Assembly (NCBI GenBank): GCA_050287085.1
Contig: JBNKBE010000005.1
Span: forward strand, 64,001 to 128,000
Length of the DNA: 64,000 bases
Origin: Polyangiaceae bacterium
GTDB lineage: Bacteria > Myxococcota_A > Polyangia > Polyangiales > Polyangiaceae
Direction of reading: 5' to 3'
The position numbers were made by a program, and so were the translations under genes. Numbering within the stretch: the stretch's first letter is position 1; every line of letters starts with the position of its first letter. The notes beneath the pieces are model-generated. The model was not told the DNA's origin. It ran no database searches and worked only from the letters and a program-made list of their open reading frames with translations. Below are positions 58,219-64,000 of the stretch, piece by piece.

Positions 58219-58302
58219 GCGCACTCCGACACAAGGAGCCCCAGCGATTCGGAAAAACCTGCGCGGCGAAACCAGAAGAGCTGCGCTAGGGTACTTGAGG
58301 TC

Positions 58303-59151
58303 ATGAGCGCTGCCCCCTCCCGCCCTTACCTTGGCCATGGCATCGGCCTCCGGGTTCCCCACTACGCCCAGGCGCTTGAGGGGGACTATCCGGTCGACTG
58401 GGTCGAGTGCATCACGGAGAACTTCCTCGGCCCCGGAGGGCGCCCTCGGGCGGTGCTTGAAGCGCTGCACGCCCGCATGCCCGTCGTATTTCACGGAGTT
58501 GCCATGGGTATCGGCTCGCCAGAGCCGCCTCACACCCGGTATCTCGACGAATTGAAACGGTTGTTTGCCGACTTTCCTCCAGCATGGGTGAGCGACCACC
58601 TGTGCTGGACACATCTCGGCGGCGTACACTCGCACGATCTGCTGCCGCTCCCCTATACGGAGGAGAGCCTGCGCCGCGTGGTCGCTCATACCCGTCTTGT
58701 GCAGGATGCCCTCGGACGACAGATCGCTCTGGAAAACGTGTCGAGCTACGTAGGCTTCCGCGCGAGCTCCATGAGTGAATGGGAGTTTCTAGGGCGCGTC
58801 GCAGAACAAGCCGATTGTATGCTGCTGCTCGACATCAACAACGTGATCGTCAGTGCAAAGAATCATGACTTCACGCCAGAGGACTTCGTACGTGGTGTAC
58901 CGCATGAACGTGTGCTGCAGTTTCACCTCGCCAATCATACGGATCGAGGCCACTACAAGTTCGACTCCCACCAGGGGCCGGTGCCCGACGAAGTGTGGGA
59001 GCTCTATCGCTTTGCGCTGCAAACCCTAGGCCCCGTGTCCTCGCTCATCGAGTGGGACGAGGAGGTCCCAACCCTGGCCCGGCTATGTGAGGAACAGCAG
59101 AAAGCGTCGCGGATCGCGCAGGAAGTTGCCGCCCAGGAGACGAGGCCATGA
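58303..59151 (+). CDS. DUF692 multinuclear non-heme iron oxidative enzyme (MNIO, BufB-like)
   Basis: GIGLRVPHY, E..TENF, HGV, VSDHLCW, HDLLPLPY, LENVSSY, LLDINN, HLANH, DSH, IEWD. Confidence 0.95.
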   Translation: MSAAPSRPYLGHGIGLRVPHYAQALEGDYPVDWVECITENFLGPGGRPRAVLEALHARMPVVFHGVAMGIGSPEPPHTRYLDELKRLFADFPPAWVSDHLCWTHLGGVHSHDLLPLPYTEESLRRVVAHTRLVQDALGRQIALENVSSYVGFRASSMSEWEFLGRVAEQADCMLLLDINNVIVSAKNHDFTPEDFVRGVPHERVLQFHLANHTDRGHYKFDSHQGPVPDEVWELYRFALQTLGPVSSLIEWDEEVPTLARLCEEQQKASRIAQEVAAQETRP

Positions 59152-59972
59152 CGCTCCGCGGCGCTCCGACCTTGGACGCGATGCAGCGCGTGTTTTGGGA
59201 TGCCATCGTGCATCCGGAGGGGGTTAGTGCATTCCTGCGCGACGCCTCCGACGAAGAGCGGGTGCTGTTTGCGGAGACCTTTGCCGAAACGGCCGAATTT
59301 CAGCGAACGGAACGGGTTGAAGTCTATGCAGAGGCGTACTTCTACCGTTTGCACGACGTCTTGGCGGAAGTGTTTCCCATCTTGCGACACGCGATCGGAC
59401 GAGCGCGTTTTCACAATCTGGTAACGGACTTCCTGCTCAGCCACCCCAGTACAGCCGGAAACCTTCATCGACTGGGGGACGCGCTCCCTGATTTCGTGCG
59501 GGGGCAAAGCTCCCTACCAGGACATCAGCAGTGGGCCGACCTCGCCAAGTTGGAGCTCGCTCTTCACACCTCACTCGATGCAGCGGACGCCGTGCCGCTC
59601 AGAGCTGAAGAGGTGATGCAGTGGGAACCGGAAGTGCTGATGGGTTCCCAGTTCCGCCTGGTGCCGTCGGCGAGCCTGGTGTCCGGTGGACACCCAGCCG
59701 GGCCCTGGCAACAAGCGCTGCGCGAGGGGCACCCTATACCGGAAGCCACCAGCACACCGGCAACCACCGGACATGTTGTGTGGCGGCAAGGCTTCCGGCC
59801 GCTCTTTCGCTGGGTCGCGTCTCCCGCGGAGTGGGCGGCCTTAACGGCCCTGTGTGCGGGCTCGCCATTTGCAGAAATTTGCGCGGTCGCCCAGAGCCAC
59901 GGCGCAACACCGATCGTCGCAGCCGGGTATCTGAAGCGCTGGCTGCAGGACGAATTGCTGACCTCAGCCTGA
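59148..59972 (+). CDS. DUF2063 MNIO partner protein (BufC/HvfC-like)
   Basis: ERVEVYAEAYFYRL..VL...FP, G..RF..L...F...HP, DLAKLE, VVWR. ATGA overlap with the MNIO gene. Confidence 0.9.
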   Translation: MTLRGAPTLDAMQRVFWDAIVHPEGVSAFLRDASDEERVLFAETFAETAEFQRTERVEVYAEAYFYRLHDVLAEVFPILRHAIGRARFHNLVTDFLLSHPSTAGNLHRLGDALPDFVRGQSSLPGHQQWADLAKLELALHTSLDAADAVPLRAEEVMQWEPEVLMGSQFRLVPSASLVSGGHPAGPWQQALREGHPIPEATSTPATTGHVVWRQGFRPLFRWVASPAEWAALTALCAGSPFAEICAVAQSHGATPIVAAGYLKRWLQDELLTSA

Positions 59973-60214
59973 GGGCCCGGGAATGGGAACCTAGTGCGTC
60001 GGCCGATGCTCGTGCCGTGGCGTGCGGGTTCGTCGAGCTACTCCAATAGCCCCGCGGGGCTCGCTCCTCGCGCGCCCACCTCGCGGTCGCGACCGGCTCG
60101 CGACTGCCCCCTCTCCGTGGGCTCTACGCTCGAGTCGCGGAAGCGGAAACACTTGGAGCCCGCGAGACACGCACCGGTCCGAGCAGCTCTTAGCGACGCG
60201 CAGCTTAACGATGG

Positions 60215-60254
60215 AAGACAAAGGGCGGCTTGAGCATGATCGCCAAGCCGCCCT
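60215..60254 (-). terminator. Intrinsic terminator candidate for the cytochrome-precursor transcript
   Basis: 11-bp stem AGGGCGGCTTG (60222-60232) / CAAGCCGCCCT (60244-60254), ending in TTTGTCTT on the minus strand, about 50 nt after the precursor stop. Confidence 0.65.
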
Positions 60255-60306
60255 CCGCATCCGCCGCCAATACTTCCGAGCCATCGCCGGCGGCAACGCC
60301 AGCTAC

Positions 60307-60582
60307 TTACATTACCGTGCCACCGGCGGTGGTGCAGTCTGCGCTGGACATCTTGACCCAGCCCTTGCCCTTGCACTCGTTCTGGCCAGCACACCCGTGC
60401 CCGCCCTCAACACCACACTGCGAATGCCCTTTGCATTCGTTGGCACCAAGGCACTTCACGGTTTCATCAGCGGCCACGGCGTCATCAGCGGATGCGGGCT
60501 CGGGCGTGCTGCTGGCACACGCGCTGGCGAAAAGCGCGGCGGCCGCGCTGGCAAAAGCTGCTTTGGTCATCTTGTTATGCAT
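60307..60582 (-). CDS. Bufferin BufA2-like Cys-rich RiPP precursor with a lipoprotein signal
   Basis: MHNKMTKAAFASAAAALFASAC-linker-VKCLGANECKGHSQCGVEGGHGCAGQNECKGKGWVKMSSADCTTAGGTVM: six core Cys, GAAGGA RBS, next to DUF692/DUF2063. Confidence 0.88.
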   Translation of the reverse strand: MHNKMTKAAFASAAAALFASACASSTPEPASADDAVAADETVKCLGANECKGHSQCGVEGGHGCAGQNECKGKGWVKMSSADCTTAGGTVM

Positions 60583-60595
60583 TGTTGTGATTCCT

Positions 60596-61057
60596 TCATT
60601 CCGATGTCTCTGCCTCGTGGCAGTTGAAACAGCCGAACTCTTTGACGGGCTCCATCTGCATCAGTTCGGCCATCCTGGGAACGACCTTGTCCATCATGAA
60701 CGCGGTCACTTCCTCGTCGTACTCCTTCGAAGCCGGAATCGGATCCGGCTTCTCTAGAGCGAACAAACCGTTCGGTAGCTTGTAGTCAACCTCCTGCATG
60801 TTCTCCCCATGGCAGGTCTGGCACTTGAAGTCCTTATAGCCCTCAGGATCAGCCTCCTGGAAGAGCTTTTTCATCTCGGGCAGCACAGTCAGCCCCATGA
60901 ACTCCATCCGCTGGTCGCGATCCATATCCTTCCACGCGAGCGCTTCGGTCCCCGCCGCCTGGGCTTCTGAGTCAGGTGTTTCCGTCGGCGTTTGACTACC
61001 CGCGCAAGCGGCGACAATGGCGCCAACACAGGGAATGATGAGGGTACTTATCTTCAT
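60596..61057 (-). CDS. Di-heme c-type cytochrome lipoprotein
   Basis: GGGAGAG RBS, lipobox IVAAC, CQTCH and CFNCH motifs, Met-rich helices. Confidence 0.85.
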   Translation of the reverse strand: MKISTLIIPCVGAIVAACAGSQTPTETPDSEAQAAGTEALAWKDMDRDQRMEFMGLTVLPEMKKLFQEADPEGYKDFKCQTCHGENMQEVDYKLPNGLFALEKPDPIPASKEYDEEVTAFMMDKVVPRMAELMQMEPVKEFGCFNCHEAETSE

Positions 61058-61100: not shown

Positions 61101-61456
61101 GCGCGAAGCTCCGCGCGACGGCGCCACTTGGACGCGGCCCAGCGGGCCGCCGCCTACCAGACGGCAGGCGCTCCAATTGGACTACTCCGATACTGGGCCC
61201 TCGGCCCGCTGTGTGCTTCACGGCTCAAACTACGCCGTCCCCTTGGGTTTGGTTTCAGTTTTCCTTCCGTCATTATCTCGGATGGGAGCCAGCTACACAA
61301 AAACCGGAATAGACTCGGGCCAGGGTCCGGACTTGCGCCCGCAAAGTCCCGTCGCTCGCTGATGCGCGCTGCGTACAAGTATGCTCAAAGTACCCCGTCA
61401 TGGCTGCCACCTCGATCGCGCGAAGTCCGGTTCCGACGTGCTTCAACGGCACTCCA

Positions 61457-61732
61457 ATGCGGGGCAACACGTGGCATAAGGCGCTCCTCACGGTTGCCGC
61501 ATTGACGTTGGGCTGTCACCGCGAAGCCCCTACGCCAGAGCAGTGCTTGGGACTCGCACAGGGAGTACTCAGCTCGGCCCCGGGCCGAGCTCTAGACACG
61601 GCCAGTCTGCGCTCGCTGACGCTGCGCTGCATCGATGAACCGTTTGACAAGCGCGTGGTTGAATGTGTGTCGGACGGCTACTCCGCGACCACCTGCATGA
61701 CGCTAGTGCCCCCTCAAGCAAGTGAGCGCTGA
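61457..61732 (+). CDS. Small Cys-containing lipoprotein
   Basis: MRGNTWHKALLTVAALTLGC lipobox and four further Cys. Confidence 0.6.
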   Translation: MRGNTWHKALLTVAALTLGCHREAPTPEQCLGLAQGVLSSAPGRALDTASLRSLTLRCIDEPFDKRVVECVSDGYSATTCMTLVPPQASER

Positions 61733-62872: not shown

Positions 62873-63691
62873 CTACTGCATTTCGATAACGCCGCAGGAC
62901 GCCTTGGCTCCTGCGTTCTCCGCGCTGCTGAGCGCGTGGATAATATACGAGTAGCGCGTAACGTCGGTATCGCCCCCGTCGCCAACGCTCCATACTTCCG
63001 CATTTTCGGTATGGGAATACGTCCCGACGCCAGCGCTACACTCGATGTCTTCGAGCACCTCGCCGTTCGGAATCCAATGGCCGCCAGCGGCCTCCCCATC
63101 GGCCCCGCACGCGTGATTGGCGTGAAGATGGGAGATGTGCAGACCGTCTGGACAGCCCGTCAGCTCGACAACCAGTGTCGTCTCGTCGCCAACTTGGGTC
63201 CACGTGGCGGTGGCCTCAAAGTTTTCCCAACCAGCCGGCGCGGCCGTCGTCGGGGTGACCACAGCGACTGCTTGGGGCCCGCTGTCGGCACCGCCATTGC
63301 CGGCGCCACCCACCTCGTTGCCCGCGCCTCCCACGTCAGCCCCCCCGCTGGCAGTCCCGCTGGTGCCGCCCATCGCTGCCGCTCCGCCCGTGTCGGGAGC
63401 GCCTGATGCGCCGCCCCCGCCGGCGGTTGCGGGTGGGTCGGCCGCGCCTGCGCTTCCGCCTGCTCCAGCCTCGCCCGTCGGAGCCGCACCGCCGCCGCCC
63501 GTTTCGGCTCCGCCTACGTTCGTATTGCCGGCCTCATTCGTATTGCCGGCAACACTGGTAGAGCCAGCAACCTCACCCGCTCCGCCGGCACCCGCAGAGG
63601 GCGTGCCTACCGGCTTATCGGCCGGCTCATCACTACACGCCTGCGCAAAAACCACACCGAGACATAACCCGGCGACACATACACTTCGCAT
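62873..63691 (-). CDS. Cu/Zn-superoxide-dismutase-fold lipoprotein lacking the Zn loop, on a long Gly/Ala linker
   Basis: GGAGG RBS and lipobox-like FAQAC. SOD motifs GLHISHLH...C...AGGHW.P, IIH and GAKASCGVI. Confidence 0.8.
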   Translation of the reverse strand: MRSVCVAGLCLGVVFAQACSDEPADKPVGTPSAGAGGAGEVAGSTSVAGNTNEAGNTNVGGAETGGGGAAPTGEAGAGGSAGAADPPATAGGGGASGAPDTGGAAAMGGTSGTASGGADVGGAGNEVGGAGNGGADSGPQAVAVVTPTTAAPAGWENFEATATWTQVGDETTLVVELTGCPDGLHISHLHANHACGADGEAAGGHWIPNGEVLEDIECSAGVGTYSHTENAEVWSVGDGGDTDVTRYSYIIHALSSAENAGAKASCGVIEMQ

Positions 63692-64000
63692 TCGACCTCC
63701 CAGCACAACCACACTCACCTTGAAGAAATGACGACCGAGCCGTCGGTAGCGGCCTGGGCGACGATATTGATGGGTCGCTCACGAGCGCATACCCTGCCCA
63801 GACGCTAGACGGAATAGGGCTCATTGCCGGCCAACGCCACCCCGATCATCGAGCGCGCAATTTGGCGCTCACAATGTCTGTGCCCAGGGTCTACCAACAT
63901 GCATCCGCGAATTTTTTGCGCAGGGCGTTCATCGGGACTACCCGGAGCCGGTCGCCAGGCATCCCGATACCATCCATTCTGCGCCCCACCCCTTCTTGTT

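Follow-up and report, generated by a model that had tools for sequence, protein, structure and literature searches.

A Buf2-type bufferin locus of a myxobacterium with a conserved di-haem cytochrome gene ahead of the precursor gene

Introduction

Bufferins form the largest family of RiPPs (ribosomally synthesised peptides with post-translational modifications) that are modified by MNIOs, oxidative enzymes dependent on multinuclear non-haem iron. This study deals with a bufferin locus in a 64,000-nucleotide stretch of DNA, referred to as the window, from Polyangiaceae bacterium (GenBank assembly GCA_050287085.1, contig JBNKBE010000005.1, positions 64,001 to 128,000), in which the precursor gene bufA2 lies behind a gene for a small c-type cytochrome and is separated from the maturation genes bufB and bufC. 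Among the described systems, buf2 of Caulobacter vibrioides is controlled by SigF, is induced by copper and has no bufD (bioRxiv 10.1101/2024.03.18.585515; PMC11626156). The Buf2 product shows a mass shift of -18 Da, with -4 Da for each central cysteine (bioRxiv 10.1101/2024.03.18.585515); in the text available of PMC12452194, the Buf2 modification is stated as not chemically identified. According to the same text, Buf2 clusters contain no sigma factor or NrsF genes, about 16% of the Buf2 precursors carry lipoprotein signals and many precursors lack linkage to an MNIO gene. Additional conserved genes are reported there in extremely low proportions, a separate cytochrome gene not being mentioned in these parts of the paper (PMC12452194).

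The locus of the window shares with Caulobacter buf2ABC (BUF_6/12Cys) the six-cysteine precursor, the MNIO BufB, the DUF2063 partner and the lack of DoxX, and it would likewise be controlled in trans by a SigF/NrsF pair, given the similar motif of its candidate promoter. It differs in that the precursor gene is split from bufBC (convergent here, divergent in family f34 discussed below), and in that the precursor has a lipobox and a conserved histidine before CysIV and is preceded by the di-haem cytochrome gene. In silico, both membrane-anchored Buf2 and fusions of a bufferin domain with a c-type haem domain have been reported; however, these few Buf1|Cytochrom_C fusions are rare, of the Buf1 type and contain PF00034, whereas the cytochrome of the window is encoded by a separate gene (PMC12452194, text available). 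The cytochrome also resembles BufD1/DoxX of buf1ABCD as a fourth, putatively redox-active gene, an analogy of position and presumed role only, since DoxX is an integral membrane protein and the window encodes a haem c lipoprotein without a PF07681 match.

A preliminary description of the window had regarded the locus as a variant because of the missing DoxX, the missing local extracytoplasmic function (ECF) sigma/anti-sigma pair, the lipidation and the cytochrome. The first three features are no departures, as all of them have been described for Buf2 clusters, and therefore the cytochrome alone needed testing; its pairing with bufA2 is real. The preliminary description knew of no report of such a pairing, and our literature search found none either, although the supplements of PMC12452194 (PDF) and PMC13056109 might cover it. 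The pairing was not found by term in the available text of PMC13097082, PMC13038864, PMC13056109 and PMC12636315, and "cytochrom" is absent from two spreadsheets of PMC12452194, one of them covered in part. The "hypothetical protein" of cluster IX (PMC13056109, legend of Fig. 5C) is an unannotated lipoprotein of 50-160 aa that recurs across bufferin clusters, compared here by its description only. The 153-aa cytochrome would pass this size filter; if cluster IX is the cytochrome family of the window, the association has been listed there without being recognised as one with a cytochrome. What seems new here, judged from sequence, is a Buf2 variant with a conserved and likely co-regulated cytochrome partner.

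Results

Recurrence of the cytochrome-bufA2 pair

The preliminary description had suggested examining cytochrome-precursor adjacency across Myxococcota. Neighbourhood analysis found the cytochrome gene followed by bufA2 in 45 genomes, which belong to 13 genera and two orders; the intervening gap, measured in 29 distinct loci, ranges from 6 to 110 nt. A lack of such links in other genomes, which the preliminary description had named as a refuting outcome, was thus not observed. In the genus of the window, 15 of 18 genomes contain an ortholog of the cytochrome, which is followed by bufA2 in 13 of the 15 and has a convergent bufBC nearby in 7. A search for bufA2 within the same family added two further genera, G226 with the exact layout of the window and G283 (2 of 38 loci), and the pair also occurs in 16 of 34 metagenome loci, 12 of the 34 showing a divergent bufB. 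By a class-wide search, this divergent layout was traced to family f34 of a different order, which is indicated to be Nannocystaceae by the source names attached to a related cluster of precursors. Here, 47 of the 71 genomes searched gave a match, with the cytochrome ahead of bufA2 in 30 of the 47 (10 genera) and a divergent bufB in 27.

The position of bufBC relative to the pair is convergent, divergent or elsewhere, and the pair is kept in all three layouts. Across the two orders, the linked cytochromes share 40-60% sequence identity with intact haem ligands and changed flanks, and besides the buf genes no flanking family is common to both orders. At the order level, the cytochrome was found beside none of the 29 other bufA2 loci. 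The pairing is beyond chance, and selection for a shared function of any kind very probably maintains it. In f34 (L358, L362, L364, L355, L359, L365), frequent neighbours of the cluster are ccsA-hemA-hemC, lnt and a gene for an AhpC/TSA redoxin lipoprotein, which may represent ancestral synteny.

Phylogeny of BufB and the cytochrome

In the BufB tree, all 31 linked BufBs, that of the window included, form together with 6 displaced orthologs a single clade of 37 rows with an SH-aLRT support of 89, which excludes the 46 others. Similarly, all 57 linked cytochromes fall within one clade of 93 rows in the cytochrome tree, which is based on few columns and has moderate support. As duplicates or partial matches, 8 rows were left out of one tree set and 4 out of the cytochrome tree. 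Since the linked sequences of each protein fall into one clade, the link arose once. In four genomes of genus g229, the cytochrome retains the six-cysteine bufA2 behind it though a second bufA adjoins bufBC. Two parsable copies of this second bufA (L381-L384) have eight cysteines, with a CC pair and a C-terminal extension.

Promoter motif and regulation

Upstream of the cytochrome gene, the motif G[AT]AAC[CT]-N15/16-CGTA is present in 10 of the 15 genus orthologs, a circular count because the motif was derived from these same sequences. Outside the genus, the strict motif stands ahead of bufA2 at 9 of 28 loci in one set and 15 of 38 in another (the sets overlap slightly), compared with a background in the window genome of 0.16% per 450 nt. 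A relaxed form stands ahead of the cytochrome in 25 of 45 linked cases, in 1 of 6 where bufA2 had been lost, in none of 10 from genus g195 and in none of 48 other unlinked cases, 3 short upstream regions having been left out of the count. In G283 the motif stands before the cytochrome and again before bufA2, which is seen in no other linked locus, while G208 has kept the motif before the cytochrome though bufA2 is lost. The short gaps and the lack, outside G283, of a motif of its own before bufA2 make it likely that the cytochrome and bufA2 are co-transcribed. The candidate promoter of bufB deviates from the consensus at one position; among the orthologous convergent bufB genes with sequence available upstream, only one of six (G203) has a strict match ahead of it.

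The motif resembles the Caulobacter SigF promoter GTAACC-N16-CGAA (PMC3511200, text available). The preliminary description was correct that an ECF sigma/anti-sigma pair is lacking locally; however, a pair of an ECF sigma factor and NrsF (PF06532) exists elsewhere in the genome (G000:C9:107596-108986; L143:3608-4986) with the same motif upstream. The strict motif precedes all 5 sigF-nrsF orthologs inspected, namely this pair and 4 of 4 close orthologs, and the pair on contig C9 probably regulates the locus in trans. Two genomes of the window genus (L211/L219; G207:C187, G205:C221) also have, in the textbook layout, a separate bufABC operon divergent from sigF-nrsF. In the intergenic regions between bufB and the cytochrome of L271, L324, L272, L277 and L320, the motif is nearly palindromic (GTAAC...GTTAC or GTTTC), so that one element could drive both divergent transcripts. 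A de novo enumeration of word pairs upstream of bufA2 returned GC-rich words only, the method having no background correction. On contig G000:C18, the strict motif also accompanies a Haem_bd gene, which was considered as a regulon member and rejected, as none of 8 other loci had a co-oriented strict match and 2 of 8 matched at 9/10.

A second di-haem lipoprotein family in other Buf2 operons

Outside the linked clade, a second family of di-haem lipoproteins is encoded directly after bufC in 17 of 20 Buf2 loci (L395-L398, L400-L410, L413, L257; G379, G219, G455, G432 and others), or in 12 of 15 when the 5 loci picked because they had already been seen are set aside. In G432 the protein forms a fusion with BufC, and G405 carries it in duplicate; its middle region is carboxypeptidase-regulatory-like. 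We regard it as unrelated to the cytochrome of the window because the profile comparison among 10 sequences gave an E no better than ~0.002. No linked-clade locus examined contains this family, and none of the 46 open reading frames after bufC in 26 loci is a DoxX. The second family occupies the DoxX slot of these other myxobacterial operons, and each of the two DoxX-less Buf2 lineages thus carries a di-haem lipoprotein of its own. Two unlinked relatives of the second family are encoded on contig C3 of the window genome. In G403 (L407:2319-7636), a co-directional run comprises bufA2, bufB, bufC, the second-family di-haem gene, a planctomycete-type cytochrome with three CxxCH motifs and a cytochrome of the window family. 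The latter lies three genes downstream of bufC and comes from outside the linked clade.

The cytochrome and the precursor

The cytochrome consists of two units of a methionine-bearing helix and a CxxCH motif, M54/C79-C82-H83 and M121/C143-C146-H147. These eight residues are invariant across 141 aligned sequences, and a distal histidine is not conserved in the alignment; therefore, two His/Met haems are predicted. His/Met ligation usually gives high potentials. In the haem-free structure model (pLDDT 85.5), M54 and M121 lie on predicted helices ahead of each CxxCH. Together with the lipobox-like sequence IVAAC, these motifs bear out the di-haem lipoprotein of the preliminary description as a prediction. 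In the profile search, the cytochrome remained below every Pfam and NCBIfam cut-off, and its model gave no Foldseek match at E 0.001 and a best Z of 4.1 in a wide fold search. Its closest profile match with a solved structure is the reaction-centre cytochrome PufC (5b5m_C, E 0.0034), a weak match to be taken as a lead only. PufC also carries a methionine on the helix ahead of each CxxCH and is tetrahaem, a build that is paralleled by two sequences (P0035, P0037) in which the di-haem unit is tandemly duplicated to four CxxCH motifs. The repeated unit is common to PufC/PF02276-like proteins (atlas leads at 0.84-0.86); however, the cytochrome has two predicted haems and neither a PF02276 nor a clear fold match, and is at most a distant relative. 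The family is present in 147 of 201 genomes of the order, with three copies in the window genome, and comprises 1001 representatives at 50% identity.

The precursor has seven cysteines, that of the lipobox-like FASAC, which follows basic residues and a hydrophobic stretch, and six core cysteines (C44, C50, C56, C64, C70 and C83 in the alignment), in agreement with the lipidated six-cysteine precursor proposed earlier. Lipidation of BufA2 and the cytochrome is predicted from lipoboxes judged by eye and by regular expression; a loose lipobox expression matches 41 of 41 linked precursors, 37 of which share with the window the histidine two residues before CysIV. Precursors missed by the regular expression were left out of the sets, 7 from the linked and cytochrome-free sets and 6 from the outside set. 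An orphan second BufA2-like lipoprotein precursor is encoded in the same genome (G000:C11:64400-64734, L008).

Gene identities and surroundings of the locus

The locus is a Buf2-type bufferin cluster, of the copper-defence type, in a myxobacterium (Table 1). All three of its bufferin proteins, which the preliminary description had recognised, exceed their family cut-offs in the profile search: BufB with 331 bits (NF050167, cut-off 310, PF05114 also above its cut-off), BufC, the DUF2063 (PME-type 1) partner that follows the MNIO gene, with 62 bits (PF09836, 27.2) and the BufA2 precursor with 74.4 bits (NF050166, 60). The proposed coupling of bufB and bufC agrees with their 4-nt overlap (ATGA), and the coordinates confirm the gap of 13 nt between the cytochrome and bufA2, which contains AGGA. 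As described before, DoxX (PF07681) and sigma-70 region 2 have no match within the window; the sole DoxX match of the genome is weak and lies on another contig.

Table 1. Features of the bufferin locus; positions refer to the window.
Feature	Position	Strand	Description
bufB, MNIO (DUF692) bufferin maturase	58303-59151	+	282 aa; NF050167 and PF05114 match
bufC, DUF2063 partner protein	59148-59972	+	274 aa; PF09836 match
bufA2 precursor	60307-60582	-	91 aa; NF050166 match; lipoprotein signal, linker and six-Cys Buf2 core
Cytochrome (di-haem, c-type; lipoprotein; unnamed myxobacterial family)	60596-61057	-	153 aa; two CxxCH motifs
Candidate intrinsic terminator (hairpin and T-rich tail), 3' of bufA2	60222-60254	-	11-bp perfect inverted repeat
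SigF-like promoter candidate for the cytochrome-bufA2 unit	61231-61256	-	GAAACC-N16-CGTA; located 173 nt 5' of the cytochrome start
Candidate SigF-like promoter of bufBC	58268-58293	+	GAAACC-N16-GGTA; 9/10 consensus positions; weak

A scan of the locus for standard sigma-70 promoters and for terminators with loops of 3-8 nt was empty. The candidate hairpin about 50 nt past bufA2, with its T-rich tail on the minus strand, was missed because its loop has 11 nt. The shared terminator of the preliminary description thus stands as far as a hairpin and T-rich tail are present, whereas the standard scan found none and sharing by the cytochrome and bufA2 is only plausible.

Divergent from the cytochrome, a small predicted lipoprotein that contains cysteine and belongs to no family (61400-61732, plus strand) is found in 14 of 15 genus genomes. 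A further lipoprotein gene 1.8 kb upstream of the cytochrome (62873-63718, minus strand) encodes a Cu/Zn superoxide dismutase-like domain together with a long Gly/Ala linker; the domain scores just below the Pfam cut-off (28.4 versus 28.9), and the lipoprotein occurs in none of the 98 cytochrome/bufA2 loci compared. The genome contains two further MNIO genes (G000:C13:174320, G000:C32:50145), beside which no precursor was found.

Discussion

The gene identity, linkage, co-phylogeny and motif distribution shown here are compatible with the following course of events. Under copper or thiol stress, the trans-encoded SigF/NrsF would turn on the transcript of the cytochrome and bufA2 and, as the motifs suggest, probably that of bufBC too. 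BufB and BufC would oxidise the four central cysteines by -4 Da each, presumably to 5-thiooxazoles, and a disulfide between CysI and CysVI would form, both by analogy with Caulobacter Buf2. The lipoboxes predict export and lipidation of the cytochrome and BufA2, each then tethered by a flexible linker, and the invariant Met...CxxCH pairs predict two His/Met haems in the cytochrome. These haems might oxidise the Cu(I) held by the bufferin to Cu(II), the electrons then going to the respiratory chain. Our tentative reading, for which the odds are somewhat less than even, is that the cytochrome acts as a direct periplasmic redox partner in place of DoxX/BufD and takes electrons from the Cu(I)-loaded bufferin.

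Several points weigh against this reading. The cores of the cytochrome and BufA2 are both acidic on average (-6.2 and -1.8), so that there is no charge complementarity, and BufD1 itself is dispensable: in Caulobacter, Buf1 functions in the absence of BufD, and Buf2 has no need of a fourth gene (bioRxiv 10.1101/2024.03.18.585515, text available). The cytochrome family is widespread without bufferins and mostly lies far from bufferin genes; at the order level, bufA2 was found within 1.5 kb at none of the 29 other top cytochrome loci. Of the 93 rows of the linked clade, 36 lack a bufA2 following the cytochrome, some of these loci being short, and judging by the genomes compared the link has been lost repeatedly (g195, G661, G205, G208, G558, G765, G738). 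The cytochrome is apart from bufA2 in 10 of 10 g195 genomes, and the five checked have bufB and bufA2 side by side and divergent, without the cytochrome; as both parts are kept separately in this genus, neither needs the other. A single origin followed by descent explains the linkage counts, kin not being independent. Within the window genus, the upstream neighbours are equally conserved (clpB in 12 of 15 genomes, a divergent small gene in 14 of 15), and the linkage there alone therefore amounts to synteny only; mere genus-level synteny as an account of the whole pairing is ruled out by the loci in other genera, in metagenomes and in family f34. As for the motif, its strict form was built from cytochrome upstream regions and its relaxed form was set after f34 had been seen and has a background of 0.8% per 350 nt; 20 of 45 linked loci are free of it, it is not enriched genome-wide (43 matches versus 29-43 at other spacings) and the genome has 42 sigma factors that could read it.

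It is also possible, though somewhat unlikely, that the two genes are co-regulated and their products work independently, the cytochrome belonging to the SigF regulon with a redox job of its own under copper or thiol stress, such as feeding a repair or detoxifying enzyme, and having the promoter but no contact in common with the bufA2 product. The SigF regulon of Caulobacter holds a separate periplasmic oxidoreductase, YedY (PMC3511200, text available), and the missing charge complementarity, the motif kept in G208 after the loss of bufA2 and the one motif per gene in G283 would fit. However, the motif is usually gone once bufA2 leaves (present in 1 of 6 and 0 of 10), and two unrelated di-haem lipoproteins inside Buf2 operons, one of them fused to BufC, are a tighter association than a regulon needs.

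The electrons could also flow in the reverse direction, the cytochrome donating them so that Cu(II) becomes Cu(I) for copper loading or oxidised thiooxazole thiols are reset, and the linkage evidence is identical to that for electron uptake from the bufferin. Buf1 was poorly loaded with copper in vitro but fully loaded in vivo, and redox-active thiols are suggested by minor forms at -2 Da; yet the loading in vivo took place in Escherichia coli without a cytochrome of the window type (bioRxiv 2024.03.18.585515, text available). This direction appears quite unlikely to us. The high potential usual for His/Met haems would also make them poor disulfide reductants.

Finally, an ancestral rearrangement might have set a housekeeping cytochrome as a passenger between the buf promoter and bufA2, where a break would cut bufA2 from its promoter; the single origin on the BufB and cytochrome trees, the repeated clean separations in the genus and genomes listed above and the wide occurrence of the family without bufferins agree with this, but we consider it improbable, as the pair is kept across two orders at 40-60% identity with intact haem ligands and changed flanks, the linkage persists where the motif is gone, g229 retains a duplicate bufA2 behind the cytochrome and a second di-haem family was recruited independently.

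The reading of the cytochrome as a redox partner would, if true, give this unnamed family its first function. Being small, soluble and linked to the precursor, the haem protein also offers an optical handle, as its haem spectra could report electron transfer with the copper-bufferin directly, a readout that the DoxX membrane protein does not easily allow. More speculatively, and rather doubtful at present, the myxobacterial Buf2 bufferin and the cytochrome would be a two-part, lipid-anchored cuprous oxidase instead of a passive copper sponge, in which the thiooxazole RiPP holds the metal and a dedicated di-haem cytochrome connects it with the respiratory chain, two unrelated di-haem families having been recruited independently. 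If this is true, the independent recruitment would point to DoxX/BufD doing the same in other bufferin clusters.

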